Part shown: in pieces, positions 1-61,879 of the stretch
Layout: each line of letters opens with the position of its first letter
Numbering within the stretch: the stretch's first letter is position 1
Assembly (NCBI RefSeq): GCF_018977255.1
Contig: NW_024704742.1
Location: 55,678,001-55,742,000 of the forward strand
Source: Callorhinchus milii
Lineage: Eukaryota
Direction: 5' to 3'
Length of the DNA stretch: 64,000 nucleotides
Translations under genes and position numbers: made by a program
Notes under the pieces: model-generated
The model's input: only the letters and a program-made list of their open reading frames with translations
What the model was told of the DNA's origin: nothing
Databases searched by the model: none

Positions 1-280
1 AGTGTTTGGCAAATTTTTGAATTCAGTCTTGTCTTTGAAATTGTCTTTCTACAGTTCTTAAAATAATTTACAGTGTACTCTGAAATTCCCATATGCTCTG
101 AAATGCTTTGTTGTTAGAGTAAATCTAGACCCAAGTGCAGTTTTTACCCCTTTGGTATACAGTACATTATTATTTATGAAATTAAAGACTTGTCTGACAC
201 AGAACATTCCTTGATCTTTAGGTTGAAATCACAGTTTGGCTGCATATCTGCATGTTTTCCGGAGTAACTTTAATGCAATG

Positions 281-432
281 CACATTTATGTTGTGCTTTC
301 ATGTCGGAGGCAGTCTCAAAGTGCTTGACAATGCTGGTTTGGCACCCGAGCTGGGGTTGGGAGTCGAAGAGAGTGGGGAGGGAATAGACGACTAAAAGCT
401 CAGTCAAAGAGGTATGTTTTGAGATGGCCTTA
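281..432 (-). mobile_element. Degenerate L2-clade LINE 3' end
   Basis: The reverse complement resembles the 3' ends of the better-preserved L2 copies in this window (e.g. 6340-6522). Confidence 0.65.
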
Positions 433-663
433 ATATGTCAGTATCCCTTTTCAGTTTTTGTCGAGATCGGCTAAGCTGGAAAGAAAACAGAATTCACCGG
501 AATTGTTGCAGGTCCAAGGAACAGTTCTCCCATTGGTTGACTGATCTGATAATGTCACTTGTGCTAATTGATGAGTCAATTGGTGTTACCACAATTATGT
601 AATATTTTATTTTTGCTCATGAAATGTCAATATAGAGAAGTGTAAAACGTACATTAATGTCTG

Positions 664-1494
664 ATGAAAAAATGTCAAAAAGAACTGACATCTGCAACTC
701 TGCCTCATAAAATACAAGCCTCTGGTGATCTTCTGCTCAGAAAAATTCTAATGCACGGATGTTCATATAGATTGCAAAATGAAGAGCAGGCTCTGGAGGT
801 AGAAGGTCGTGCAAGGAGGCACAGGGCATATGCAGAGGTTGGGAGACTTCCTCACAGGGAGGAAGTGAGATGGAAAGAGAACAAACGGTGTCAGTTCTTT
901 AGGCACTTTTTTAGTAAACAGTTCCAGAACAGCCCTGAGGAGAGGAACGGAATCGGACTGGGAGTCCACATGAGGGAAGGATGCATACTTTTTTTGTCAG
1001 CTGGGTGTCTGACACATGAGGAAAACCCATCACTGTGCTGCTTAACCAAGCTGAGATTTCCATGCATCCCACCTACATATGGAAATTCCAGAGATAGATT
1101 ATTGTAATGGAATCCGCTCTCTCTCCCTGGAGGGATCCATCCTGCTTACCTAATTGCGGAAACTATTAGGCGCAGGTTGGCAAGAGCCAAGGCTTTGGCA
1201 CCCCAGAGTGTGCTTTGGGATACTCTTGGAGTCTAACAACTAAAACTGCATAACTGGCTGTTGATAGCACTCGCTGGCAAGCTTTCTTGCTGCTTGTCCA
1301 GCTGGGGCCACCCTATCCCTTTACGGCTTTGGCTTGCAGGGTTAACAGGAACTGAGTGGGAGGATTCCCTGCCCCCATGGACTGGTTTGCCTTTTCAAGT
1401 CCTGTCGATAAGCCAGGCTTGCTGTGCTGTCATCAGTAGTGCCCTGGAATATTGCAGACCCACCTGCCTCAGAAGGAAAAATCTCATAAAATAA
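664..1494 (+). repeat. Unclassified interspersed repeat with residual reading frame (copy 1)
   Basis: One frame runs from 664 to 1494 with only two internal TAA stops (1105, ~1234). Bases 1105-1472 align by eye with the reverse complement of 39236-39600. Confidence 0.6.
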
Positions 1495-4400
1495 CAGGAG
1501 GTGAAGAAGCCTTTTCAACCATCTTTCCAGAACATAAACCTGAGCATTTTTGCATTAAAATGTCAAGCTGTTTCTTTTACTGGGCATTTTCCAAACAAAG
1601 TTGAACTCATCTAATTTAGATGTTTATTTTTGCAGATGCATTGATTCAATGGTTGCCTTTATTATCTTTCCTTATTTTTAGAATTATTTTCGTGAACACT
1701 CAAATGATTTTTGTTTTGATTTCCTCACCTCGTGAGGAACTCCCACAAACCTTGCTGATATATTCTGTCTGCCCACCAACATGCATAACCTCCTCCTCCT
1801 CCTGCTTGACTCCACTGGCAAAATTGATATCTCCGAGATACAGCAGCAGAAAATAAATAAGATTAAGTGACTATTTGTTCTATTTGATGTTGAAATTTAG
1901 AAATAAAAGCCCCATAGCAGATTGTCAATACTTCCTTAGTACTACTGTATTACCAACCGCCAAAATGATCCAAATACAGATGATTTGTGCTGAATAATCA
2001 TTTTGTGCAGAATCTTTTTTCCTTTTTTATTATTTTATTATTGCTTTGTATCCTTGGATCTAATTGTAAATATCCATACAGTAGCTTTAGAATTGCATAA
2101 TAAGTTACCCGTGAACCTTTAAGAACAATTGACTTGAGTGATATCACTCTTCTTGACAGCAAATTCAGACAGCATATTCAGTGTTAACATTTGAAGGCTA
2201 CGGCGGAATTCGTTGTAACACAAACACAAAAATATTAGAAGGTGGCACGTTTTTAATTTATTTAGAAATATTGACACAATCCTTTGTGCTTCTGTGAATT
2301 CCTTTATTTCAGAATACTTAACACCAGAAACGTACTGTATTGTTTCACTTGCGCATTTTGTATGCCACATGATAGGACACACATGCAGATTTGAAGGGTT
2401 GTCAAAGGGAATTCAGTGTTCAGAGATCTGAATTCCCTTGAAATGTACTGCACCATTCTTTATCTTCCTTGTCGAATTTTTTGAAAAAATCTCTTCAGGA
2501 GTGGGCCTTCCAGGACTAATTCAGGAAATTATTCATACTTTGCATATTGTCTGAGTCTTTCGTTAAGAAAGGTACATGGAAATGGCTAAGAATATTTGAA
2601 CGAAAGCTATTAATATATCCAGTAATGTAATGGTTCAAACACGCTGCTGAGTTTTGCCTTTCTTTGGAATCTGTAAAACTATCTCCTGGACAATTTGCTA
2701 ATTGTTATTTGTAAATATCACAAGGAACTTGTTATGCAATGCTACAAATTTCACCCTAAGATCTCTCATGAGAAAAGGGTTGATGGATAGATGTCAACGA
2801 ACTGACCAGAAAATTAGCTGATTGTTGCTAGGTAGTTATTTTAAGTCGCTGCAGCTCAATTGGCCTCAGAGCCCATAGAATCGTGAGGGAAATTCAGACA
2901 GTGCTTCCACGGAATGATTAAATAAGTGTACATGGGGTGACGATGGAACCAGCCTTGGCTGTGAGCCCCTCCGTCCCAGCTACTGAATAGCATGTGCACC
3001 CAATGTCATGGTTCAAAGACGGAAAATGGTCACTTAGATGAGGCACTGGAGGGTCCCCTGTGGACCTATACATGGTCATACAAGAAAAATGAGTCAAACG
3101 TTTTGTGGCGAGAAGGAAAGAAGGGTAGAAAAATGGAGAAAAACTGCAGAAAACTAGAATGATTTTTTGTGTCACAATAATAATGCATAGAAGTCACCTT
3201 TTAGTGTGTAAAACCTAATTCAACAATGCATTAGATAAAAAATAATCTAGTTTTGCTTTCAATTCAATCCTATATTAAGTACACAACATATTTGTGAGTG
3301 CCGTGTAGATAGATCGCAGATCATTTAACCTTTTCCTTTGTAACTTATTAAGGTTTTCTGGTGAAAATTAAAGCCTACATCTATTTTTGTTATGGATGGT
3401 CCTCCAATTTTCTATTTTATGAGGGCAAAATGACAAGCTGGTAATGTCAGGAGGTTTTGAGAAAAGAATAATTGTTCTTTAACAGCCAGCTGTGTATTGA
3501 ATGACTATAAACATGTCACAACAGGGCAGGAATCTTCAGCTAATTCAGGGTCAGGCTTGTGAAACCTGCTACTTATTTTACCATTCTGCAGCAGTGGTGT
3601 TACATGAATGTATATATTGTCGGGAGCTTTTCCAGTATTGCTGACAATGCTCAAGTGCAGGAAAGTTGTGACACAGACTATACTTATCTATCCTGCAGAA
3701 AGAGGAGATAGATGCCCTTAACCAGAAAAATGAACCTTTGTTAGAACAAGTAGCTGTCAGCTTGTGGGTTCTTAGATCATTCCGTTAAGCTGCATTATTG
3801 TGCCTTGGGGTACAAGGCAATCTGCAGACAATGCTCTCAGTGTAATTCGTTCACTTTCATCTTTCGTTTATTGAATGGGGGAGAAAAAGGACAAACAAAC
3901 CTTTTAAATAAAAAAGACATTTTTTTCTGCTTTTACCCTGAACAAACCATGACCTCTGTGTTTAGATATCAGAATCAATTACTGTATGAGAGATGACAAC
4001 CCTGCCCTCCAGCAAAGACAAAGCTTGTAGCGAAGGGGGAGAGCGGCACTTCCATGGAAATACTTCAAAATGTGTCTACCTCATTAACAAGTATAGGAAG
4101 CATAAAACAGATATGTTTACTCAGGTTTATGCATGTTAAAATTGTCCAAAAAATCCAGGTATGTAAAATGTTATGGTACCTTATGGAGAACATTTGAATA
4201 TTTATAATAAATTGGTTGATTCATAAGATGGTTTACAAGAAAGTCTGCATTTTCTGAGGTATATTATATTAGTTACATAGAGTTTGCACTTTCTTCTAAG
4301 CTCTGTTCAGTATGAGTTAAATGTTTGTGTACATATACTGTGGCTATTATAACACTCCAAACAAAAATAATCACTCAACGTTTGTGACATCTTTTGAAAA

Positions 4401-5154: not shown

Positions 5155-6522
5155 ATGGACCACTCCATCCTCCCCCACTGCCTCTTCTCTCACCTCAACC
5201 TTCAAGGTTCTATCCTTGAATTCTGAACATCTGTGATCAGGGCTCCCTCTGCCTCCTTGTCTTCCTCGACCTCTCTGCCGCCTTCGACACTGTCGACCAC
5301 TCCATCCTCATACACCGCCTCTCTGCTTTACTCAATCTTCATGGACCTGCCCTTACCTGGGTCGATTCCTAGCTCTCTCACCATGTCCATTTAGTTGCCT
5401 CTGATGGTTTCTCCTCCAGCCCCCGCACTGTCACATCTGGCGTCCCCCAGGGCTTTGTCCTTGGCCCTTTCCTCTTTGATATCTACATACTCCCCCTTGG
5501 TGACATCATCCGCAGACATGGGGTCAACTTCCATATGTATGCGGATGACACGCAACTCTATCTTTCTGCCTCCACCCTCAACTCCAGGACCACTGCTGTC
5601 CTGACAGACTGTCTGTCGGACATCAAGTCCTGGATGAGGGCAAATTTCCTACAGTTGAATGTGAACAAGACTGAGGCCCTCCTGATTGGTTCACGCCAGC
5701 GCCTCAGCACCTCAGGCTCTGGCAGCATCAACCTCCATGGTTGCTCACTACAACTCACCAGCCAGTCAGGAACCGAGGTGTCTTGTTCAACCCTCAACTG
5801 TCTTTTCTCCCCCACATTCAAGCCATGACCCGCTCTGCCTTTCCTCACCTCCGTAACATCGCCCGACTCCGCCACTACCTCACCCCTCAGGCCACTGAAA
5901 CACTTATTCATGCCTTCATCACCTCCAGGCTCGACTATGCAAATGCTCTGCTTGTCGGCCTTCCCAACTCCTCCCTCCGCAGGCTGAAGATAATCCAGAA
6001 CATTGCTGTCCATGTCCTCTCCTGCACCAAACTCCGTGACCCCATTCCCCCCCATTCCCACCCAACTCCATTGGCCCCCTATCCTTCAGAGGATCCATTT
6101 CAAGATCCTGGTCCTCACATACAAAGCCCTCCATGGCCTCGCCTCACCCTACCTCTGCAACCTCCTAACCCCCTACCAACCCGCCTACTCCCTCCGCTCA
6201 GCCGGTTCCGGCCTGCTCCACTTCCCCTGACCCACCCGCCCCATCATTGGAGGGAGAGCCTTCAGCCACTCTGCCCCCAACCTCTGGAATTTCATTCCCC
6301 AATCACTCTGCCTCGCCCCCTCCTTAGCCTCCTTCAAGTCCCGCCTCAAGACCCTCCTCTTCGATCATGCCTTTAGCCACCCCACTTCTCCTCCCCTCCC
6401 TTACCCCCCCAACCCCAGCTCGAGTCTGAAATATCCAGCTCTGTCTCTACTCTGTCCAGCACCTTGGGACGTCCTCCCGACGTGAAAGGCGCTACACAAA
6501 TGTAATCTTGTTGTTGTTGTTG
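5155..6522 (+). mobile_element. 5'-truncated L2-clade LINE (RT domain to 3' tail), frameshifted
   Basis: Motifs [37 protein letters not shown] and SRLDYANALL. Ends gtgaaaggcgctacacaaatgtaatc(TTG)n. Confidence 0.95.
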
Positions 6523-6529
6523 AATGGTT

Positions 6530-7294
6530 CAGATTTTATCTCTCACATTGTCTCCGCCAATGATTTCTCTTACAACCCCTAAACAGTCTTGTGTGGTGTT
6601 CCTCAGGGCTCCCTCCTCGGTCCCCTCCTTTTGAACCTCTACGTGCTCCCCATTGGTGACATTATCCGCAGACATCAGGTCAATTTCCACATGTATGCGG
6701 ATGACACCCAACTCTATCTCTCTGCCTCCACCCTCAAACACAGGACCATTGATGTCCTGACAGATCATCCAGAACTCTGCAGCTCATGTCCCTTTCCACA
6801 CCAGACTCCCTGCCCTGACTCCATCACCCCCACCCTCCCCCAGCTCAAATGGCTCTCCATCCCTCAGAGGATAGAATTTAAAATCCTCGTCCTCACTTTC
6901 AAGGCCCTCCATGGCCTTGCCCCCTCCTACCTCTCTGATCTGCCGACACCCTATCATCCTGTCCACTCCCTCTGTTCAGCAGGCTCTGTCCTGTTCCATG
7001 TTTCCCGCCTGGCCTGCTCTACCATCGGGGGCTGGGCTTTCAGCCTCTCTGTTCCCACCCTTTGGAACTCCGTTCCACAATCTCTTTGCCAGGCTCCCTC
7101 TCTTGCCTCCTTCAAGGCATGACTCAAGACCCTCCTTTTCGACTGTGCCTTCACCAGCCCTCCTACCCTCTCTGCCGTTCCTCACCCCAACCCTGCCCCC
7201 CCCAACCTCAGGTCCTGATCCCCAACTGTTCAGCACCTTAGGGTATCCTCCTGACGTGGAATAGCCTTTACAAATATAATTTTGTTGTTGTTGT
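6530..7294 (+). mobile_element. L2-clade LINE, 5'-truncated with an internal deletion
   Basis: CGVPQGSLLGPLL and YADDTQLY, then a jump at ~6762 to the C-terminal region (WLSIPQRIEFKIL), then a (TTG)n tail. Confidence 0.92.
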
Positions 7295-7519
7295 GGTGTA
7301 TTCTGGAACGAAGATGAAATGGACCTAAAGGGAATCTTCATCCAAATCTCTCTTGTGATCCTTGGAACCAGCAGATGGATGAAACCTTCATCAGATGGAC
7401 CTGAGATGGATTCAACTACATGATGTAGAGGTGGGAAATTCTATCTATTTAACTTTTCCGAGTGCATTTTTGGTAGCTCTAAAATTTGGCTGCTCATCTG
7501 GCATTAATTTTAATTGCTT

Positions 7520-16191: not shown

Positions 16192-16501
16192 GGAAGTCCT
16201 GTAGCTCAGTGGTTAGAGAACTCGCTTTGCAAGCGAGAAACCTGGGTTCAATTCCAGGCAGGGCGAAACCTTCGGCAAGTTTCCTTACTCCACACGCCTA
16301 ATAATAATCCCTCCAAAACCAAAAACAATAATAAATTGGTCATTTTCAATCCACGACTGTTTGTGGGACATTGCTGTGCGCAATTAGCTGCCGCGTTAGC
16401 CCACAAACATACACTTTACAGTGCATTCTGTGAAGCGCTTTGGGACATCCTCCCGATGTGAAAAGCGCTATATCAAATGCAAGGATTATTATTATTATTA
16501 T
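16192..16501 (+). mobile_element. tRNA-Ala(TGC)-derived SINE, short form
   Basis: gtcctgtagctcagtggttagagaa-ctcgc-tttgcaa-gcgag-aaacctgggttcaattcc head, then a half CORE-like segment, a Deu 3' part, an L2-like tail and (TTA)n. Confidence 0.92.
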
Positions 16502-17149
16502 AAAAGACCATGGGATTTTGCAATACAAAATGCAAAAAAATTGTATTGTAAAATTGTAAGATTTTAATGGATTATAAACAAAATTACACCAGGCTTTGGG
16601 ACACTGTATTTGTTTCTGGGATAGTTTGAAGCCTTGATGAGCACTGACCATTCCTAAGTTTAATTAAAAGTCAGCCTGGAAAACAAATACTGACTGACCT
16701 ATGAGCCCCATTTAGTGGGCTGATCTATACATAAATAGTGGAGGTTCACGTCATTTACATTCAATCTGAATTAATGCTGGGTAAGACCAGCTATATCAAT
16801 CCCCATCAGCTTCTTCCCATGGGAAACAGCAGGACTACAGTAGACAGAACTTACAGCACTTAATCAACAAAATATACTGGAGGAAAATAATCAACTTTGC
16901 TCTTTATTGGGTAGTCTATCAGTGTGCAGTCACTGTTATCTGTCAAAGATGGATGCTCATGGATCTGACCCTCATAGTGTTTTGGAGCATTGAAAGACTT
17001 GAAAACATTATATTGCAGAACTAAATCAAGCTACATATTTACCGTTGCCGAATGCATAGCCTAGCAAACCTGGTGATGCTTAACTCTTCATGTGAACATC
17101 TGAATACAAGGGACAGATTACCAAGTGGCAGCACAGTCTGACATATAGT

Positions 17150-18322
17150 TCCACAAACGGCTTCTCCTCCAGCCCCCGCACTGTCTCGTGCGGTGTCCCT
17201 CAGGGCTCTGTCCTCGGTCCCCTCCTCTTCACCCTCTATATGCTCCCCCTTGGTGACATCATCCACAGACATGGGGTTAACTTCCACATGTATGCAAATG
17301 ACACCCAACTCTACCTTTCCTCCTCTACTCTCAACTCCACGACCACGATGTCCTGACAGCTGCCTGTCCGACATCGAGTCCTGGACGAGAGACAACTTTC
17401 TTCAGCTCAACGTGCGCAAAACTGAGGCCCTCCTGATTGGCTCACGTCAGCGCCTCCGCACCTCAGGCGCTGACAGCATCAACATCCAAGGCTGCACTCT
17501 CCACCTCTCAAAGCCGTCAGGAACCTTGGGGTTCTGTTCGACCCTGAGCTGTCCTTTCTCCTCATATCCGCACCACAACTGGCACCGCCTTCCATCACCT
17601 CCGGAACATCGCCAGACTACGGCACTACCTCACCCCTCACGCTGCTGAAACTCTGGTCCACGCCTTTATTACCTCAAGGCTGGACTATGGGAACTCTCTC
17701 CTCGCCGGCCTTCCCGGCACCTCCCTCCACACGCTGCAGGTCATTCAAAACTCTGGAGCTCGTGTACTGTCCCGCACCAGGACCACATCACTCCCACCCT
17801 CGCTCGCCTCCACCGGCTCCCCAGAGAATCAAATTCAAGATCTTCATCCTCACCTACAAGGCCATTCACGGCCTTGCTCCCTCCTACCTCTCCGACCTAC
17901 TATACCCCTACCTACCTGCCCGTACCCTCCATTCCTCTGGCTCCGGTCTGCTCCACATCCCCCGCCCCAACTGCCCTACCATCGGTGGCCGGGCCTTCAG
18001 CCTCTCAGCCCCGAGGCTTTGGAACTCCATCCCCCAGTGCCTTCGCCGCTTCCTCCCTTTCCTCCTTCAAGGCCGGTCTCAAGACCTTTCTCTTTGACCG
18101 TGCCTTCAGCTCCCCTCTCGACTCTCTACCCCCTCCTCACTCCCTCCCTTCCCTCCACTCACCATTTTCCCCCTCCTCGCTCCCTCCTTTCCCTCCCCTC
18201 ACCCTGACCATTTTCCCCCCCAAGGCTCAGGTCCTGACCCAACTGTCCAGCGCCTTGGGACATCCTCCCGACGTGAAAGGCGCTCTATAAATGGAATCTT
18301 GTTGTTGTTGTTGTTGTTGTTG
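17150..18322 (+). mobile_element. 5'-truncated L2 LINE
   Basis: [40 protein letters not shown] and a (TTG)n tail. Confidence 0.95.
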
Positions 18323-19821: not shown

Positions 19822-19930
19822 ATAATAATAATCCTTGCATTTGACATAGCCCCTTATCATGTCTTCGAGACGTCTCAAAGCGCTTCACAGAATATACTGT
19901 AAAAAGTAGTGACTGTATATTTTGTGGGTG
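19822..19930 (-). mobile_element. SINE 3' tail
   Basis: (TAA)n-tccttgcatttgacatagccccttatcatgtcttcgagacgtctcaaagcgcttcacag. Confidence 0.8.
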
Positions 19931-20409
19931 AAACTTAAAGATAAAGACAACCATTAAAAAATTCTTAGGCAAAATGCAGCATTTAGAATCTAGGACTAGT
20001 GTATCTATTAGGGCTTTGGCTTGCAGAATTAACTTGAATTTGTAACTATCAATCTTTGGGAAGATTTGTTACTATCTTTGCAAAGGTATCCAAGGTAGAG
20101 CTTGTTTCAAGGTGACTTACCCGACAAAGGTGAGAACAAAGGTAGAAGCAGGGTAGAAGCAGCTGTCAGAAGTGGACTCAGTGACCCCATCTTGAATTAT
20201 ACAGGACTGTAGTATTCCAGTACAATGAGACTTTGAGGTGTAGAAGGCCACTGGGAGATAGGCTTCTTCTCACATTTAGTGGCAAGCTGTTTATTTACAG
20301 TTGGTTTAATTATGGAAATACCCCAATGCTCACCTTAAAGTCCTTATTGTTTTAGCATTGTTAATCCACATCAGTGTTCTCTGGAGATACCCAAGCTTAA
20401 ATTGGAAAC

Positions 20410-20748: not shown

Positions 20749-21121
20749 TGGATGGAGGATAAATGAATGCCAATTCCACAGTCATCATCACAGCTCTGAA
20801 CTCTCAAACATTGACTCCTCTGTCAAGATTGGCTAATAATACACATAGTGCAGAAGCCACACACAAGCTATATACAGCAGTATTAAATCTCAGTGAAATT
20901 TTAACTACTGTGTTACTCAATAGACCTCAAGGAGAAATTCAATTTAACTAATTAAGAAGCCAAATTATTTAAGAAGTAAGTCATACATTAACCATAAAGC
21001 TGATGATTTGCAGATCTACACTCAATTGCAATTAACAAAACGGAAAATAAATAAACAATCCTTGCAATATATTACCTTTCACATCAGGAGGATGAGCAGC
21101 CATTACTTTCATTTTAGAAAC

Positions 21122-21679
21122 TGAATACTGTGTGCAGTTTTGGTCTCCTTATTTAAGGAAGGATGTACTTGCCTCAGAGGGGGTGCAGCGTAGATTTACT
21201 AGATTAGTACCAGGGATGAAGGAGATAAGTTACGAGGATAGGCTGACCAATTTGGGCCTATATTCTCTAGAATATAGAAGAATTAGAGGGGATCTTATAG
21301 AAACCTATAAGATCATCAAAGGGCATAATAGAGTAGATAGTGGGAGATTGTTCCCCTGGTTGGAGAAACTAAAACCAGGGGTCACAACCTTAAAATCAGA
21401 GGCCAGCCCTTTTGCACTGAGTTGAGGAAGAACTTCTTCATTCAAAGGGTGGTGAATGTATGGAACTCGCTATCCCAAACGGCTGTTGACGCTCAGTCCT
21501 TGAACATATTCAAGACTGAGATGGATATATTACTTATTGCAAAAGGGATTAAGGGATATTTGGATAAGGCAGTGTTATGGTATTAGCTGGAGTTAGATTA
21601 GAAGATCAGCCATGATTGAATGGCGGGGCAGGCTCGAAGGGCCGAATGGCCTACTCCTGCTCCTACATGTTATGTTATG
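21122..21679 (+). mobile_element. 5'-truncated CR1-clade LINE
   Basis: EYCVQFWSPYLRKD..EGVQRRFTRLVPG...YEDRL..LGLYSLE.RR.RGDLIETYKI. 3' hairpin caggctcgaagggccgaatggcctactcctg and an (ATGTT)n tail. Confidence 0.93.
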
Positions 21680-37750: not shown

Positions 37751-38110
37751 AATAATAATAATAATAATCCTTGCATTTGATATAGCATCTTATCATGTCT
37801 TTGAGACATCTCAAATCGCTTCAAGAATATACTCCAAAGTGAATTGGGAGAAACGGGGCAGCCAATTGTGCAAAACAGTGTCCAACAAACAGTGGTGGAT
37901 TGAGTGAACAAATTATTTTTATTTCGAAGGAATTATTACTCCCGGAAAAGCAATCCACCAATCGACTAACGACCGGGTTCCTACTTACTGCTAGGTAAAC
38001 AGAAACGTGTGGAGTAACGAAACTTGCCCAACATTTTGCCCTACCGGGAAATGAATCCAAGGTCTCTCGCCTGTGAGGCGAGTACACTAACCACTGAGCT
38101 ATAGGACTCC
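37751..38110 (-). mobile_element. tRNA-Ala-type SINE, long form
   Basis: Head ggagtcctatagctcagtggttag, with an extra internal segment ctgtttacctagcagtaagtaggaacccggtcgttagtcgattgg. Confidence 0.88.
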
Positions 38111-38302
38111 AAATGAGATGAACTTGTGGAAGGTAGAGCTGTACAGTTATTAACAATTAACAAGGAATGATTCTCTTATAAATTTGCTGATATAATGTGT
38201 ATAATCCTCCACTGGATTTTCTCATTCTAAGGTCATACATCCAGGTCAGTGGGTTTACCAATACTCACAGTTACTCAATTAAAAATGTAGGGTTATTTGA
38301 AT

Positions 38303-38560
38303 AGCATTTATATTTATATAGTGCCGTTCATGTCTGGAGGATGTCTCCAAATGCTTCACACAGCTGACTGGGAGCTTCAGCTGGGGTTGGGGAAGCTGAG
38401 GAGGGAGGGGAGAGGGAAAGGCGACCGAAAGTACAGTCAGATAGACTGGTCTTAAACGAGCTTCAAAGGTGTGAGGGAAGAGGTGTGGCGGAGGTATTCA
38501 AGGATGGATCGCAGAATGGCTGAAAGTTTGCCCAACAATGATTGGCAGATTGGAAGAGGA
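38303..38560 (-). mobile_element. Degenerate L2 3' end
   Basis: Similar to 281-432 and to the other L2 tails. Confidence 0.65.
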
Positions 38561-39235
38561 AACATGTAGAGGTTTGCTGAACTAATCTGTTGAAACTAGC
38601 AATGCTCCATTTGCCCATTTGTTCAATTAGTGTGGAATAGAACCTTAACTTCACTAAGGGTTGGTGTCATGAAATGCCAAGAGTTTAGCTCAGCACATTC
38701 GGCAGGCATTCCACAGCGCACCAGGCATCATTTTTATTTATCAGAATAATTTCCTTTAAATTTTCTGCCTTTCTTCTTTCTTTTATATTTTCAAAATCTT
38801 TGTGGTCCCATTAAATGTTAATAAGTTAACAGAATCATCGGGACACTGGAGAGGAATTCCCTGTGGAGTACACAGAGACACTGTATACAAAACAGTGCCA
38901 TTTATTTGTAGATCATTCTAAGTTCATTACCAATGCAAGGGCAGAGGATATTGTGAGAGGAAGATGAATAGCTAACATAATGTAATGTAATACCTTAGCA
39001 TCAAAGCCTAACAGTTAATTCTATGATATTCATTTTTACAAGAAAGGATGCACTTACCCAGCTTCTTGCATTTAGTCATGACGTGGATTAGAGTAATGAG
39101 TGGGAAGGACTTGGAGGCTACAGGTGGAACTGCACTTTGACAATGAGCAGCTGAACTGGCTCCAAGATTAAATTCTTGGCAAAAAAAATGTTGGAATCAA
39201 GTCAACCCTCTGTGGTGGTCTCAGAACTCCAATTC

Positions 39236-39600
39236 CTGAGCTGGGTGGGTCAATAGTAAGACAGGCTACTGCCTATGACAGACCGGCTACCCTGGCTCAT
39301 CAGCAGAACCTATTGCAGGGGCAGGATGGGAACAAGGATTCTTCCCTCTCAACTCTTGTTAACCCTGCAAGCCAAATCTCCACTGGGTAGGGTGGATCTT
39401 GTTGGAAAAGCAGTGGGGAGCTTATCAGACAGTCCTCTCAATGTGAAACTATGTGGTTTTAACTTGTTAAACTTCAGCAATACCCCAATACCACACTCTG
39501 GGGACCCCAGGTCTTGGCTCTTGTCAACCTGCACCTAATAGTCTCTAGAATTATGGAACCTGGGTATATCCCTCCTGGGAAAGAGTTTGCATTCTATTTC
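39236..39600 (-). repeat. Unclassified interspersed repeat (copy 2)
   Basis: Reverse complement actattaggtgcaggttgacaagagccaag...ccccagagtgtg...tttggcttgcagggttaaca matches 1163-1350. Confidence 0.75.
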
Positions 39601-41164
39601 TGTTTCCTGTAAATTCTTTTAAGAGGCTTTACAGTTAAAAGTGAATTCAGCAATGTGCCAAATTCTGCATAATCTGAAATGCCACATTAATGGTGTAAAT
39701 CTAGACCCAGGTTGAATTTCTACCTGTAGGTTTGCTTCATAATGCATTTAGCCTTTTAATATAGTTTATTCCCCCCCACCCACACCCATCTCAAACCCAG
39801 ATATTTTCTCTGTGAATCATCATTGCACTCACCCCAAAATCAGTATATCCTTTCTATATTGAGATAGCAGCACTGATCACAGAATTTTCCTGATTGCTCA
39901 CCTCCACACCTTCTCAAAAACAATACTATTGCGCATATAAATAGAAAATACCAGTTACATGATACATGATACTGATCAACCACATTATGATTGAAGATCT
40001 CTTCAAGTTTGTTAATTACATTTCTAGTCCTTGGTGAGTCACTTGTTTTATATCACTGAACTTGAAGCTAGTGCTTTGAAAAATACGCAGCAATTAATGG
40101 AAATTTTTTCCTTGAGCAGCATTGTGTAAATCATAACTTTTTCTCATGTACTCTACATGTACGGTGTGGGTTGATGCATCTGTCAAAAAATAAATGAAAA
40201 AAACTGTTGCACTCTGGAAGGAAATGATTTGCATCTTGAGAACTGCCTTGGTTTCCATTTAAAAGGCTGATATATTTAACTAGAAATATTGTATGCATTT
40301 GCATTCCTATTTTCTTATGGAAGCTTACGTCAGTCATGCAACGCACAATTTCTGGACAGAGCTGAACACAAAATCCCAAAGTAATTATCCAAAAGCATTG
40401 CATTAATAAAATGCTTTCTATTGTCAGTGCAATCCCATTTAGTTCAAATACGAAAATAACTAAAGTCCCTCAGATAAATATGGTGACTGATTCCTGCTGT
40501 AATATGTTCGTTCTAATAGACCTCCTTTATCCTTTGGGGATTACACTGATTTTTGTGTTCACCCTGTCTGATGTTTGGCTCAGAATGTAATAAAACAGGC
40601 TCAGAGACTGAACCCTAAAGCCAGTTCTTTTGAAGATGTTGAGCCTGGAACCAAATGGAGTGACAAACTGAAATGACAGCTGCTTTGTTGTTTACATTGG
40701 TGGCGGGCAGTGTTGAAAGCAAAATGAAGTCGAGAACTCCAACAATCACTCAAAAATAGGCAAATGTCCCATTGAATCCTATCGGGCTTAATAATTTCTT
40801 CAACCCCTTCTCACCCAAAACACAAGCTCTTGTTGGAAAAAAAGGAATTTCTTGTATGTGTGTGGAAGGGCTGGGAGATTCTCAAATTAACTATGTCACT
40901 TTGGAATTTCTGGCTTGCAAATCAACAATCCTAATATGCAGAAATAGATCATTTTGGACAAATATTATTTTTCTCTTCCAATTTTCTCTCTGCCTCCTGT
41001 CCTGAAGGCATTGATCTCCTTTATCTTTCTCCTGAGACATAGCTTAAAGGACACCATTTGTCACCATTTGTATTCGATCACCTCACCCAACTGACTGTAA
41101 CTTACAAGTGACAAGCAGTCTATTCATCCTGGGGACAGCACAGTCAAACCCTATTCTGTCCTTA

Positions 41165-43829: not shown

Positions 43830-44838
43830 AACCCTCTTGGTGACATCATCCACAGACATGGGGTCAACTTCCACATGTATGAGGATGACACCCAACTCTA
43901 CCTCTCTGTCTCCACCCTTGACTCCAGGATCACTGCTGTCCTGACAGAATGTCTGTCAGACAACAAGTCCTGGATCAGAGCTAATTTTCTTCAGTTGAAC
44001 GTCAGCAAGATCGAGTCTCTCCTGATTGGCTCCACACCTCAGCCCGGACAGTATCACCATCCATGGTTGCACACTCCACCTCACTAAGCCAGTCCAGAAC
44101 CTTGGGGTCTTGTTTGATCCTCAACTATCCTTTCTACCCCATATCTGTGCCATGACCCACTCTGCCCTCCCGCACCTCCGCAACATCACCCGGCTCCGCC
44201 ACTGTCTCACACCGCAGGCCACCGAAACCCTCATACACGCTTGCATTAGATTGAGATTTGACTATGCAAACTCCTTGCTTGTCGGACTCCCCAACTCCTC
44301 CCTCCATAGGCTACAGATCATCCAGAACTCTGCAGCCTGTGTCCTCTTCCGCACCAGGCACCATGATCCTATCACCCCCATCCTCGCCCGACTCTACTGG
44401 CTTCCCATCAAACAGAGGATGCAGTTCAAGATCCTGGTCCTCACCTTCAAAGCTCTCCATGGTCTTACTCTCGCCTACCTCTGCAATCTCCTAACCCCCT
44501 ACCATCCTGCTCGCTCCCTCTCCGCTCAGCAGGCTTCAGCCTGCTTCATGTCCCCTGCCTCGCTCATTCGACTATTGGTGGGCGGGCCTTCTGCCATTCT
44601 GCTCCCACCCTCTGGAATTCTATCCCGCAGTCCCTCCACCTCAACCCATCCCTTGCCTCCTTCAAGACCCATCTCGAGACCCTTCTGTTCGACCGTGTTT
44701 TTGATCACCCTGCATCCCCCACTGCCCTCCACCCTCCCCGATTCCGACCCCCAGCTCGGGTCCAAAACTCTTTCTGTCCAGCACCTTGGAACATTCTCCC
44801 AACGCAAAAGGTGCTACACAAATGTAATTTTGTTGTTG
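43830..44838 (+). mobile_element. 5'-truncated L2 LINE
   Basis: FHMYEDDTQLY, LQLNVSKIE, VQNLGVLFD, RLYWLPIKQRMQFKIL and a (TTG)n tail. Confidence 0.95.
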
Positions 44839-45296
44839 GTAGCACTCTCATCTCTTTGAACTCATAGTCTAGGTTGACACTTCAATACAAAGGAAATGTG
44901 CTGTATTGTCAGATATTGCTGTCTTTTGGGGATATTGCTGTGTACAAATAGGTTGTTTTGTTCACCTGTAAATATACAGTCACTACACCACAGTAAAAAT
45001 TCTGAGAAATACTTTGAGGCACCTCAATAATGCCACAAGGCATTACATCAAATGTGAGGACTGAAGTTAAGAATATTCCACAATTTTATGATTCTTAACA
45101 TTTAAGACAAAAGGTTCTATTGACAAGGGCTGAGACGAGGTGAAATCTCAGACAGTTCTCACGTGAATCATGTCATTGCTTGAATGAGAATGCTACAGTG
45201 TGGTCAGGATGTACAGTGAGCTCATGATAACTCATCACTCCAAAGGAAAAGGGCTCAGTGATGAGTTATCCGGAGTGTCGAGTTAGACATATGTAT

Positions 45297-46409: not shown

Positions 46410-48180
46410 TAAACAACAACAAATTACATTTATATAATGCTGTTCACATCAGGTGCTGGATAGTCGAGGGTTTGCACTGAAGTTTTTTGGGGTGAAAAGA
46501 TAACCCAAGGTACAGTCAAATAGGAAGGTCTTCAGACAGACTTTAAAGGAGACAATAGGAGGAGTGAGATAAAGGGAGTTCCAGAGGGTTGAGGCAAAAA
46601 GTTCGCCGATGGTAGGGTGGGCAGGGTGGGAGACATGAAACAAGCCAGTGCCTGCCAAGTGGAGGGAACGGGTGGGTTGGAAAGATTTGAGTAGGTTACA
46701 GAAGTGGGATGGACTTTAAAAGTAAGGAGGAGGATCTTGAACTTGATCTGGGGAATGCGGAACCAGTGGAGCCGGGTGAGGATTGGGGTGATTGGCTAAT
46801 GGAGCTTAGTGCAGGACATAAACTGCAGAGTTCTGAATAATCTGCAGCTTGTGGAGGGAAGATTTGGGAAGTCTGGTGAGCAGGGAGTTAAAATAATCAA
46901 GCCTGGACATGATGAAAGCATGGATAACGTTCTCAGTGGCCCAAGGGGAGAAGTATTAGCGAGGCGAGCAATGTTACGGAGGTGGAAGAAGGCTGTATGA
47001 GTCAAGGCACAGACAGGTTAAGGGATAGTTGAGAGTTGAACAAGACAACAAGATTTGGTACTGACTGGATGAGGTGGAGTGTGCATCCATGTATAGTGAT
47101 GTTGTCAGTGCTTGAGGTGAGAGGAAGTGGCGAGGCTGGGCGTTATTGAAGAAGCAGAACGATCATGGCATGGATGTGAGGTTTGAAAGACAGTTGAAGG
47201 TCAAACAAGATGCCAATATTCCGTACTGTGTCGGTGAGGTGTATAGTGCATCCATGGATGGTGATGCTGTCAGTGCCTGATGTATGGAGATGCTTAGATG
47301 GGAGCCAAGCAGGAGTGCCTCTGTTTTGCTTTTCAACTGGAGAAAGTTAGATCTTACCCAAGACTTGATGTCTGACAGGCAATCTGTCAGGAAAACGGTG
47401 GTCCTGGAATCAAGGGTGGAAGCAGAGATAGAGATGGGTGTCATCTGCATACATGTGGAAGTTAACTTCATTCTTATGGATGACATCACCGAGAGGGAGC
47501 ATGTAAATATTAAAGAGAAGAGGACCAAGGAAGTAACCCTGAGGAATGCTGCACATGACAGTGCGGGGACTGGAGGAGAAGTCATTAGCAGATACAAAGT
47601 GGAGACAATGGGAAGCATAAGAGTGAAACCAGCCAAGTGAAGATGGAGCTGAGAGTAAAGGCGGTGGAGAAGAATAGAGTGGTCGACAGTGTTGATGGCT
47701 GCAGAGAGATCAAGAAGACTTTGACTCAGGCAGTCTCTCTGTACTATGAGTAGCATGGAAACCAAATTGGAAGGGTTCTTGCAAGGTATGTCGGGAGAGG
47801 AAAGAACAAAGCTGGGAAGCAATGATCCTTCCAGAACATTGGAAAGGAAAGGGAGATTGGAGATGGCATGGTAGTTATGGAACAGAGATGTGTTGAGGGA
47901 AAAAAAATTGAGGCTGGAGATGATGGCAGCTGTATTTAAGGGGGTGGGGACTATGTTGGTAGTCAATTGACATTGCCTCTTAGTAGGGGAGCTTCGAGGT
48001 GGAGCTGGGAGGTCAGGAGAGTTGTAGGGAATGGGTCAAGAGAGCAGGTGATGGGGTTCTTTGGCAAATGATGAAGATACGAGAAGAGGGAGAGACAGAG
48101 GATCAAAGGTGTGGAGATAGGGATGAGTGGAGACTGGAAGGGATGGGAAGGTGGAGAAAGGTGACGGTACCAAGGGCATA
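46410..48180 (-). mobile_element. Composite L2 (two overlapping RT-region pieces)
   Basis: ISNLPFLS, LLDLSAAINTVDH, WVRSNFLQL and FFHLRNIARL. The segment ~46970-47120 recurs at ~47135-47285. Confidence 0.88.
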
Positions 48181-50794: not shown

Positions 50795-51578
50795 ACAACA
50801 ACAACAACAACAACAACAAGATTCCATTTATAGAGCGCCTTTCACGTCAGGAGGACGTCCCAAGGCGCTGCACAGTTGGGTCATGACCCGAGCAGGGGGG
50901 AAATGGTCAGGGTGAGGGGAGGGAAGGGAGGGAGCGAGGAGGGGGGAAATGGTCAGGGTGAGGGGAGGGAAGGGAGGGAGAGAGGAGGGGGGAAATGGTC
51001 AGGGTGAGGGGAGGGAAGGGAGGGAGCGAGGAGGGGGAAGGAGTCGAGAGGGGAGCTGAAGTCACGGTCAAAGAGAAAGGTTTTGAAACCGGCCTTGAAG
51101 GAGGAAAGGGAGGAAGCGGCGAAGGCACTGGGGGATAGAGTTCCAGAGCCTGGGGGCTGAGAGGCTGAAGGCCCGACCACCGATAGTAGGGCGGTTGGGG
51201 CGGGGGGTGGAGCAGACCGGAGCCAGAGGAACGGAGGGTACGGGCAGGTAGGTAGGGGGATAGTAGGTTGGAGAGGTAGGAGGGTGCAAGGCCGTGAATG
51301 GCCTTGTAGGTGAGGATGAGGATCTTGAAATCAATCCTCTGGGGGATGGGGAGCCAGTGGAGGCGAGCGAGGGTAGGAGTGATGTGGTCCCGAAGCCTGG
51401 TGCGGGACAGTACACGAGCTGCAGAGTTCTGAATGACCTGCAGCTTGTGGAGGGAGGTGGCGGGAAGGCCGGCGAGGAGAGAGTTCCCATAGTCCAGCCT
51501 TGAGGTGACAAAGGCGTGAACCAGGGTTTCAGCGGCATGAGGGGTGAGGTAATGGCGTAGTCTGGCGATATTCCGGAG
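50795..51578 (-). mobile_element. Young L2 LINE, same subfamily as 17150-18322
   Basis: Closely similar ORF2 C-terminus and tail (gtgaaaggcgctctataaatggaatc(TTG)n). Confidence 0.95.
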
Positions 51579-51589
51579 TTTAATTCAAA

Positions 51590-51736
51590 GGAATGCACCT
51601 CCAACAGTCCAGCATACCCCGAGCACTGTACTGGAGGGTCAGACTAGGCTGTGAGCTCAAAGTCCTGATGTAAGGTTTGAACCTACATCTTCTGACTCAG
51701 AGTTGACTGTGATTACAACTGAGCCAGGCTAACACC
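51590..51736 (-). mobile_element. Deu-SINE head
   Basis: Reverse complement ggtgttagcctggctcagttgtaatcacagtcaactctgagtcagaagatgtaggttcaaacc. Confidence 0.78.
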
Positions 51737-52458
51737 TAAATAACTAGAATAATTAGCAGGGAACATGTCTCTAGTTTCATGAGGAGTGTTTGTTCATCCC
51801 CCAATATGGTCAAAAGCAGCCCTGAACACAAGTTCCAGCACTAGCAATAGTTTTACTTTTATAATGTGTTACACTTCTAGACTTTAATAAGAAAGCGTCA
51901 GATGAAAAATGGCCCTGACAATAAAAGGTTATCAAAAAGAAGTTCTCGGAAGGCCTGAGTTCTTCTGTTTGAAATGTAATTATATCCTGTCCTTGCCAAG
52001 GGCCACTATTCAGTCCTTAGGTCTGAATGCACCCTTCACTGCCTTTCTTGTCTTTAAGTGCATGTGGAAATTATCCTTTCATGCGTCCAAACTGTTGCAT
52101 TTAGGTCTGCCTGCTTCTTTTTTTTAATACCTAAAATATCACAGATATATTGTATGATCGAAAATCAAATGTCCTTTCATTAATTCTGTAAGGCAAAGTG
52201 ATAGGTTCAAGTGTGAATTCTTCATCAGTGACGAAAACAGTCATCTGCCCTGGACAGGAGCATTGGATGCAATTTTATATTTTTCGAGCATTCATGACAT
52301 TTTTCATGTTTCTGTCATTGGCATGAATTTTATTTGACCCCTTATCAAGCTGAAATGACTTGAAACCTTTCTCTTCAACACTTGCGTTGTCACAGCAATA
52401 AATTTCACTGGCAATGAATTACAGTCAAAGAGTTGGTCAAGCACAAAAGCTGTAATGG

Positions 52459-58175: not shown

Positions 58176-59513
58176 GTTGGCGGAGTACCCAGTAAACCTC
58201 TGTTGAGACTGGACTAAAAAGCGACAGTCCTGACTGCTTTCCACGTACAAGAAGTGTACAAAACATAATGGAAGAAATCAATGCTGTACAATGGGAATCC
58301 CTAGCCCGTATGAATTACACTGAGCCCTTGAACTAGGGATAAAAATCACCACAGTAGCTGTTTGTAAAATCTGGTACTGTGGGATACATGCTGAGCTAAC
58401 ATCTTCGGAGCATTTAACCAGTGCTGACATTCCCCCTTTAACTGATATGATGGGAGCTAGCATCTTCCAAAGCCCTGCTAATAATCCTTAAATCTGTTTT
58501 TTTAACAGAATGAAAATGTAATGGAAGCATCACCCATTTCAGTGCTTTCATAGACTGGAATAAACTTTAGTAAATGAGTTTCAGAAATTAATTTCTATGT
58601 GCAGAACAAAGTTAATGCGATTTCTATGCCTCAGCAAACAGCAGTCAGATCCCAACTCATGTAGTGACATGTCATTGAGGGACAATCTCCATCACATTAT
58701 TCGGAGCTATATCATCCTCCTGTGTGTGATGTGCAACTGCTAGTTGCAGGTGCACTCAGCAAATTCTGTGGTTGGGATAAGAACATTAAAAAATGGGTTG
58801 TGAGCTGATCAGTCTTCTAATCCCAACATAAGCACAGATCGGGAATGGGGAGCACTATATCTATGATTAAAAGGACTTTGCGCAATTTTGCCGTTTTAAT
58901 TTAAAACAATTTCTGATGAACCAACTGCACATTAGTTTGCTTCCAGTGATTTTGCTGTGCTACTGTGTTATTCACAGCCACCTCCAGACCTAAAGTAAAG
59001 GCCTTGACCATCCTAATAAGTGACTGCATGATAATACTGAAAGCAGAGCTGATTTCAGGATAGGTTTGCAGAGCATGGTGGACGAGGTCCAGGACTGTGA
59101 CCTACTTTGATGGTGAGGTCCATGAGTCACCAACTCCAAGGTCAGAAGTGAGGCTTCAAGGAAAGTGAAGATGAAAAATATCCAGAAAAATCTGTAAATC
59201 TGCGAAAGGTTTAATGACTTGAAAAAATCAGCCATGGAGAATATTTCAATAGACTGCCAAGCTAGGAGAACGGATCAACCAACATAAGAAGCTGGAATTT
59301 TCAGAAATCAATGTGGCAGAATTGTTCATCCTTGAAAGCCCAGAAGGTGTGAGCAATGCTGAGATGGGACCTAAGTCTACAGAGGATGTATTAAGTCTTT
59401 AACTAGTCAAATTGTACATAGAATACTGTATTCATTTGTGGTGCTTGAAAAATACATATGGATGGGTGGGGTGAATTTGAAGCATTTCACAAATGATATC
59501 AACAACAACATGT

Positions 59514-59835
59514 GGAGTCCTGTAGCTCAGTGGTTAGAGCACTCGCTTTGCAAGCGAGAGACCTGAGTTCAATTCCAGGCAGGGCGAAACTTGGGCAAGT
59601 TTCCTTACTCCACACGCCTAATAATAATCCCTCCAAAAAAACAAAACAATAATAAATTGGTCATTTTCAATCTACGACTGTTTGTGGGACATTGCTGTGC
59701 GCAATTGGCTGCCGCGTTCGCCCGCAAATATACAGTCAATTCACTTTACAGTGTGTTCTGTGAAGCGCTTTGGGACGTCCTCCCAACGTGAAAAGCGCTA
59801 TATCAAATGCAAGGATTATTATTATTATTATTATT
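59514..59835 (+). mobile_element. tRNA-Ala(TGC) SINE, short form, best-preserved copy
   Basis: ggagtcctgtagctcagtggttagagcactcgctttgcaagcgagagacctgagttcaattccagg with intact A and B boxes and a (TTA)n tail. Confidence 0.95.
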
Positions 59836-60562
59836 AACATCAGCTTGATTTATATTGGGCCTCTCATGCAGGGTAGCACCTAAATCCAGCTCTGAAGACT
59901 CCTGCCTGCAGCTTTAGGGAACTGGTTTGCTCTGTAACAGATTTGTTTTTACAAAATGTTATCCATTATCTTGATTTCAAAGCACTACCGAAAGAGTTGC
60001 TCAAGTGTTGCTCAGTACAAGAGCTCATTTTAGAGACACCATCTGAAGCTGCTCTCAAAGGATCTGGACTGACATAACTGCTATCCTACTTTTAATTGTT
60101 AAAATCTGCTATCCTCACTGCGATCAGGAGCTATTTGCTGAGCTAAGATCGTTGGATCACTGGCCCTTAATGGTGGATTATTCCTGCACGAGTAACTCAA
60201 TGATATGGCAATATTTACAGAATGATATCAAGATGTCACTTAAGTATTATTTGATGTTGCCCATCTCCGGAGGCAGTGTAAGAACTCTGCTTTCTAAACA
60301 GGTTTTTGACTCTGAAGTCCCAGATATTGCAGTAATTTAGTGGTATGAACTAGCAATTACTTTCCGTTGTGTTGGCAGAAAACATTTTTAGAGAAGTGCA
60401 GATAATTATTTCACTGCAGGAATTCTGTTCTTTCATAGATAGTCTATTCAAGGCTGCTTCACATTGGCAAGTCTAATAGCTTACAAACCATATAGTCTTT
60501 GATTTTAAGATTAATGTAACTGAAAGAGGGTCAATTATGAACAGACAGTGGTCATTACTGAC

Positions 60563-61879
60563 TGGGCCATTTTAGTTGTGTTTATGATTTCTAATGAAGT
60601 GATAATAATGCTTTAACATTAGCAAAATGGAAAGATAGGACATCACCCTCATGGATGAATGGTTTGCCCTGACCTCCCAGGCCTGTTGGATTAAAACAAA
60701 AGTTGCTTCAATAATTGTAACAGAATTCACTAGAAAATTATATATTCCAATATGGATACCTGTGAAAGGTGCTATATAAATACAAGTTGTTGTTGTTCAT
60801 CTTGCACAGATGAAAATTGCCATGTTGTTCCTCTGCTCTATTTCTCCCACCATTGGTAGGCACCCGCTCTCTTCCCAGATCCCTCCGACTTGCTCCTCCA
60901 CCCCCACACTTTTTCAAGTTATGTCTCAAAATATGCCTCTTTGACTGCGCTTTCAGTCCTTTTCCCCCTCCTCACCCCACTCAGCTCCCATCCTCAACTC
61001 TGGTGCCCAGTTAAAATTGTCAACCACTTTGGAGCATCCTCCTGATTTGAAAGCACTATCTAAGTGTACACTGGATTTTATTTATCCAAGAGCTTGTTTT
61101 GCCATGCTTGTTTGCACATAATAGTCATCTTTACATTGTCAAGATATCTCAAAATGCTTCATAGGATTTTATTGTTAAGTGTAGTGACAGTGTATTTGTG
61201 GATAGATGCAAGGGCCAAATTGCACACAGCAATGTCCTACTGAAATAGAACAAATTGAGTCCTCATTTGCTCATGACAACAAATGGCATATCTCATAAAA
61301 CCTCATTAGAACATATTACATTCCAAAAAATACCAAAGAAACTAACCTTTGCCTGTCCGTTCAGTCATTTTGTGCAACTATTTAGTCACAGCTGCTAAAA
61401 TATGTATTTGTAAAACGGAAGATCCTTGGGCAAATGTGATCTAATCTAATGATTTATCTCATCCTCTCGTCTTTCAAACCTATACTATAGAGCCTCACTT
61501 AAGCTTCTCAACAATAAAATATTCTAATGCAAGCTGGCTTTCTTATTACTTTGAGCAATTTTAAAGCATTGAGTTCAACTTTTTGAATTGTAATAATAGG
61601 CAACATGGGCCATTTTAGTTGTGCTTATGTTTTCTAATGAAGTGATAATAATGCTTTAACATTAGCAAAATGGAAAGATAGGACATCACCCTCATGGATG
61701 AATGGTTTGCCCTGACCGCCCAGGTCTGTTGGATTAAAACAAAAGTTGCTTCAATAATTGTAACAGCATTCACTAAAAAATGATATATTCCAATATGGAT
61801 AACCATGAAAGGTGCTATATAAATACAAGTTGTTGTTGTTCATCTTGCACAGATGAAAATTGCCATGTTGTTCCTCTGC
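60563..61879 (+). repeat. 274-bp direct repeat (60563-60836 and 61606-61879)
   Basis: Ungapped alignment with about 10 mismatches counted by eye. Confidence 0.95.
60837..61065 (+). mobile_element. Degenerate L2 3' end
   Basis: FKLCLKICLFDCAFS followed by an L2-like 3' UTR. Confidence 0.7.

Follow-up and report, generated by a model that had tools for sequence, protein, structure and literature searches.

The reading frame at 664-1494

A reading frame on the plus strand runs almost uninterrupted through positions 664-1494 of a 64,000-nucleotide stretch of Callorhinchus milii DNA (hereafter the window), and part of it recurs in inverted orientation elsewhere in the same stretch. The question raised by this locus is whether it holds the fossil of a rare coding element, or whether the similarity between the copies has another origin. 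The former was the original prediction, in which 664-1494 was treated as a single unit, present in two to three copies and preserving a protein frame. The more general part of that view, namely that the locus is a fossil left by a dispersed mobile element, is borne out by the analysis; the repeat is real, the protein frame proposed to be common to its copies breaks down, and the claim of coding is unsupported.

A high-copy repeat next to single-copy DNA

The segment 1096-1474 on the plus strand (copy 1) aligns with 39608-39234 on the minus strand (copy 2) with 261 identities in 370 aligned bases and a BLAST E value of 1e-48. The alignment score is 369, whereas 200 shuffles averaged 74 and did not exceed 97; the inverted recurrence of 1105-1472 had been placed at 39236-39600. 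Copy 2 belongs to the same family and spans 39200-39608 on the plus strand, its true 5′ end lying at or before about 39200. A third match had been proposed for about 20005-20200, and a short remnant is indeed present there: a 19-base motif common to both copies recurs at 20015-20033 with two mismatches (17 of 19 bases; BLAST E 0.012), where shuffled sequences give a mean of 0.01 matches. The remnant extends over about 45 bp on the minus strand (19990-20033), and 36 of its 44 bases agree, as compared by eye, with the loose contig ends of the family combined with copy 1. Nothing further was found out to 20200, and alignment of 19900-20350 over the whole length resulted in scores of 84 and 92, inside the background obtained from 540 windows (mean 77, s.d. 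9, highest value 108).

The abundance of the repeat was studied via contigs from four of 24 public runs (X1, X5, X14 and X12), aligned to positions 1-3000 of the window at 80% likeness. The contigs placed on this region numbered 26,577 for X1, 18,214 for X5, 12,636 for X14 and 7,184 for X12, and were mostly less than 95% alike. The summed depth in X1 was 123,000 in 1001-1100, 248,000 in 1101-1200, 34,000 in 1201-1300, 95,000 in 1301-1400 and 36,000 in 1401-1500. Across the bins of 901-1500 it ranged from 4,000 to 248,000, whereas the flanks at 501-900 and 1501-2000 stood at about 8 and 8-10, respectively. The resulting ratio of repeat to flank was 30,000 in 1101-1200, 11,500 in 1301-1400 and about 6,000 in 1401-1472, thereby decreasing towards what would be the 5′ side of the element, a gradient that may instead reflect local divergence of copy 1; the ratios (4,000-30,000, of the order of 10^4) are to be read as an order of magnitude, depth being no copy number. 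High depth is confined to about 989-1472, and the same pattern was observed in organisms B and C, that is, in three organisms in all. Run X12, which is guessed to be RNA, also covers the repeat, its contigs carrying neither strand nor level. By contig depth the repeat is a major high-copy family and not an oddity of two to three copies.

The depth profile likewise divides the proposed unit in two. Repeat sequence extends from near 985-995 to 1472, whereas 664-988 is single-copy, with an X1 depth of 8.3 in the bins of 601-900. This flank accounts for the first 108 codons of the predicted frame and lies outside the repeat; it gave no weighty match to Pfam, PHROG or PDB. As 664-988 consists of unique DNA, the open reading frame 664-1107 runs from the flank into the repeat.

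The frame is not shared between copies

The continuous frame was confirmed in copy 1, where 664-1494 comprises 277 codons with TAA at 1105, 1234 and 1492. Such a long near-open frame is uncommon, yet within chance: 20 Markov simulations of the window each contained 0-2 spans of 276 codons with no more than two stops per 64 kb, and 10 simulations at local composition each contained 0-5 of them. The alignment of copies 1 and 2 contains six indels (1, 1, 1, 1, 7 and 3 bases, near 1214, 1239, 1282, 1315, 1378 and 1398, respectively), of which five are frameshifts, and copy 2 read in the same frame has seven stops. The two pairs of peptides from which a preserved frame had been deduced both exist. 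However, the blocks on which they lie, 1096-1214 and 1317-1378, are in one register only because four single-base indels cancel, and between and after these blocks the copies are out of register. A test of codon-position bias between the copies had been proposed together with the coding claim, and yielded 40, 33 and 36 substitutions at positions 1, 2 and 3 (p = 0.71), with no excess at the third position. Judged from these substitutions and the frameshifting indels, the decay of the copies is neutral-looking.

A fossil of an unknown coding element, once translated on the plus strand in the frame of 664, would be consistent with a few features of the substitutions. In this frame, 17 of 40 single-base codon changes are synonymous, against a neutral fraction of 0.30 (p = 0.029 when the frame is taken alone), and 64 of 120 codons are identical in residue (p = 0.059). 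It is the frame with the highest synonymous fraction and the fewest stops among the six, and other members of the family lack its first TAA, as read by eye from the loose end behind 1096. Still, when each value is assessed as the best of six frames, p rises to 0.11 for the synonymous fraction (3,000 simulations) and to 0.14 for residue identity. Moreover, copy 1 differs in length from other family members: it has one additional base near 1316 (92, 77, 57 and 53 contigs, one figure for each of the four runs) and, as determined by eye from loose ends, about seven bases fewer at 1022-1043 and one extra near 1097. The continuous frame of copy 1 is therefore its own accident and not a property of the family. 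With the frame broken both between the copies and relative to other family members, no bias in codon position, a first half made up of unique flank and no homologue among 35 candidates or in PDB or Pfam, a coding origin on the plus strand appears very improbable.

Searches for related proteins and sequences

No reverse transcriptase, endonuclease, integrase or transposase motif had been recognised by inspection, and this was confirmed by Pfam, which returned no family in any of the 12 frames of the two copies, nor in 38500-39900 or 601-1601, three upstream frames included. The open reading frame 664-1104 gave only a sub-threshold Pfam match (Ned1_M, E 0.14); PHROGs likewise gave sub-threshold matches only (E 0.07), and PDB gave none. 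Word-seeded searches yielded no homologue among 355, 35 and 90 candidates, respectively. Protein searches with two plus-strand frames of copy 2 were also empty, including, for one of these frames, a HMMER search over 1.84 billion representatives, and no usable match was obtained from the ESM Atlas. In total, these large homologue searches took in three frames, out of six per copy. DNA motif scans of metagenome and viral contigs gave no match. A set of 66 metagenome matches to an 18-base pattern could not be extended beyond alignments of 52 bases, with a best E of 3e-4, and was dropped as chance.

Ends, tail and fold of the element

Copy 1 occupies 989-1472, most probably with its sense on the minus strand. 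Its left end is fixed at a run of seven A on the minus strand (989-995, T7 on the plus strand), which coincides with the edge of the high-depth zone and is a candidate poly(A) tail. The depth of bin 901-1000 is what 10-16 bases covered as deeply as position 1022 would give, placing the left end at about 985-990. Outside the A run, an inverted similarity was observed between 968-986 and about 1059-1078; of 1,744 background windows, 0.8% score as high, the comparison having been picked post hoc. Because of this similarity the left boundary, at about 965-995, is uncertain by about 25 bases. The terminal 130 or so bases on the minus strand (978-1110) are predicted to fold into a long stem-loop (z = -2.68, with one of 200 shuffles as stable), the corresponding value for the plus strand being z = -1.57. 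The stem-loop is absent from copy 2, and no match to 900-1120 was found near that copy. The 380 bases shared by the copies show no unusual fold (z from -1.54 to +0.82).

The right end of the repeat is variable. Copy 1 stops at 1472, where 220 contigs of X1 and 96 of X12 run on with unlike sequence. A loose end of 30 bases behind 1472 matches 39233-39204 of copy 2 at 24 positions, as counted by eye, and copy 2 therefore extends further 5′ than copy 1. On the opposite side, a second apparent 3′ end point was noted at a short CATTC-like doublet (1096-1119, minus strand), where a subset of contigs have T-rich loose ends. Loose ends before 1119 were found in 279 (X1), 226 (X5) and 161 (X14) contigs; they are T-rich on the plus strand, with a mutual agreement of only about 0.5. 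The alignment of the copies ends at 1096/39608, the same point as this cluster, and copy 2 thus ends there too. The cluster is only suggestive of an alternative, shorter 3′ terminus.

A target-site duplication was not seen near copy 1, the best direct repeats being 8/11 and 9/13; the insertion is old, and some LINE clades make no such duplication. In copy 2, the tandem stops TAG TAA (39254-39259, plus strand) follow directly upon a hydrophobic stretch ending in QFLSWVGQ, and we take them to resemble the ORF2 C-termini of the I-group and RTEX. Speculatively, they could represent the end of a LINE ORF2, in which case the untranslated region would be about 460 bases long. The assignment is unsupported, as searches of the frames of copy 2 found nothing.

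Probable assignment to a truncated LINE tail

In our assessment copy 1 is, with a probability of roughly 0.7, the dead, 5′-truncated and mostly untranslated 3′ end of an abundant and old non-LTR retroposon of the LINE type. The best explanation for copy 2 (39200-39608) and the 45-bp scrap near 20000 is that they are further fragments of the same family. The minus strand is most likely the sense strand of the element, which would consist mostly of 3′ untranslated region, and longer copies would be expected to carry a reverse transcriptase gene further 5′. The mechanism is that of established LINE biology. By target-primed reverse transcription, the RNA of the element would have been copied into DNA at a nick in the genome, beginning with its A-tailed, stem-loop 3′ end, and early termination of synthesis would have left copies that are anchored at the 3′ side and variable at the 5′ side. 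The truncated copies would then have decayed neutrally. An A-rich tail at the fixed end is seen in copy 1 only, and variable 5′ truncation is observed directly at two ends, in addition to the loose contig ends. Against the LINE assignment, no reverse transcriptase or endonuclease is linked to the family, albeit the copies examined may be too short to include one. The A run is just 7 bases long and copy 2 has none, there is no target-site duplication, the shared 380 bases lack an unusual fold, and a weak synonymous excess is present in the plus-strand frame.

Several other types of element have to be weighed against a truncated LINE. A non-autonomous retroposon, SINE-like or akin to a Penelope-type terminal repeat, would have no coding body and would be mobilised in trans via its A-tailed hairpin end. 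This is compatible with the lack of protein homology in the copies searched, the very high copy number, the two apparent 3′ end points and the inverted similarity outside the A run. However, nothing near the gathering score was obtained from Rfam in either copy, with no match to tRNA, 5S or 7SL, and no tRNA-like head as in tRNA-derived SINEs was seen in either copy, neither of which reaches the 5′ end of the family. The minimal hammerhead ribozyme expected in a terminal repeat of a Penelope-like element was absent both at the gathering score and at E up to 10 in Rfam, which may miss minimal forms. Furthermore, the tail is unlike the SINE or L2 tails of the window and the right ends are variable, making a non-autonomous retroposon an unlikely source of the repeat.

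A solo LTR or DIRS-type terminal repeat on the plus strand, starting with TG at 995, is less probable still. The left edge does read TG right at the end of the T run, and the element is non-coding, at least about 500 bp long and of high copy number. On the other hand, its right end is not fixed, copy 2 running further, the depth is uneven along the element, no target-site duplication of 4-6 bp was seen, and the clustering of T-rich loose ends at 1119 suits A tails better. The least probable of these origins is an internal fragment of a non-autonomous DNA transposon or Helitron. A hairpin near one end, the non-coding character and the high copy number would all suit such an element. Yet the two ends of copy 1 show no inverted match to each other in a search of 900-1120 against the window, which covers the right end of copy 1 and not the true far end of the family, and this type of genome is reported to contain few DNA transposons (PMC4350176).

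Relation to known repeats

The family resembles the 5′-truncated LINEs of vertebrates in being 3′-anchored and A-tailed, with a variable 5′ end, a 3′ stem-loop, high copy number and advanced decay. It is unlike them in having no linked reverse transcriptase or endonuclease, no target-site duplication, and two apparent 3′ ends about 110 bases apart. A 3′ stem-loop is common in the tails of stringent LINEs, according to the accessible part of PMC3747384.

The elephant shark genome is reported to be almost wholly derived from retroelements, with many old and degenerate copies (accessible parts of PMC5381603 and PMC4350176), and to be dominated by L2, CR1 and SINEs (the same sources and PMC5499810, likewise in part). 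Named C. milii repeats include L2-2_CM and CR1 elements as well as CmiSINE and SacSINE1-CM (accessible part of PMC5499810), and the rest of the window is filled with the same kind of debris. The regions 500-1700 and 900-1120 gave no match to the L2, CR1 or SINE fragments of the window, and the repeat therefore belongs to another family. A survey of the elephant shark from 2007 lists ten abundant repeat consensus sequences, of which three are LINE-like and one unknown (GenBank DQ524329-DQ524339; PMC1845163, accessible part), and a family this common could be among them. The accessible literature holds no description tied to the family, including under Repbase-style names. The available portion of the supplement of PMC13343379 contains no match to the family motif, and none of PMC9004415, PMC3747384, PMC5753468, PMC12952989, PMC11203168 and PMC3964593 describes the repeat sequence in the text accessible to us.

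In summary, the repeat is a genomic fossil of an ordinary kind. A family this abundant is presumably already part of a de novo repeat library. In a genome full of decayed retroposon fragments a further one matters little, and its significance would rise only if the family fell outside known clades or if the antisense frame had been under selection. Both would apply if the repeat were the tail of a very abundant holocephalan retroposon whose clade is uncatalogued, which could end at either of two 3′ positions about 110 bases apart and in whose 3′ untranslated region an antisense frame was once selected. The basis for such selection is the synonymous excess (p = 0.03 for the frame taken alone), and we regard this combination as very unlikely.

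Age of the insertion

The CpG observed/expected ratio is 0.20 and 0.04 in the two copies, both being depleted. A contig of organism B that covers 1408-2844, and hence the junction at 1472, shows 182 differences over 1437 bases. The insertion is thus present in organism B as well and is older than a split that amounts to about 13% sequence divergence. Copies of the family could accordingly serve as presence/absence markers for chimaera phylogeny, given an insertion shared with a relative that is about 13% diverged. Further along, the unique stretch 2057-2844 aligns at about 87% in both organism B and organism C, its depth being slightly raised at 2701-2900, also in X12.

Other repeats in the window

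Pieces recognised as L2 and CR1, together with tRNA-derived SINEs, crowd the window. A CR1-type fragment at 35827-37110 (plus strand) includes an RVT_1 match at 35842-36336 (E 2e-15) and a C-terminal part that is open over 203 codons, and a further CR1-type piece lies at 21096-21425. L2-like C-terminal fragments were found at 5259-7297, 17142-18322, 30419-31485, 32605-33265, 43832-44859, 46615-48035 and 50796-51738, several with long open frames and with a mutual identity of 68-90%. SINE copies headed by a tRNA, as identified by Rfam, occupy 16195-16503, 34331-34645, 38006-38115 and 59509-59836. Older, diverged tails akin to the L2/SINE 3′ end are present at 265-424, 38309-38497 and 60879-61084, with 69-72% mutual identity.

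A separate second repeat, 13-148 / 39596-39724, is 66% identical over 139 bases (E 2e-6) and adjoins the 3′ break of copy 2; in the bins of 1-200, which contain it, the depth is about 100 times that of the flank. Finally, 60563-60836 and 61606-61879 constitute a direct duplication of 274 bases with 96% identity, about 1 kb apart and younger than the surrounding repeats.
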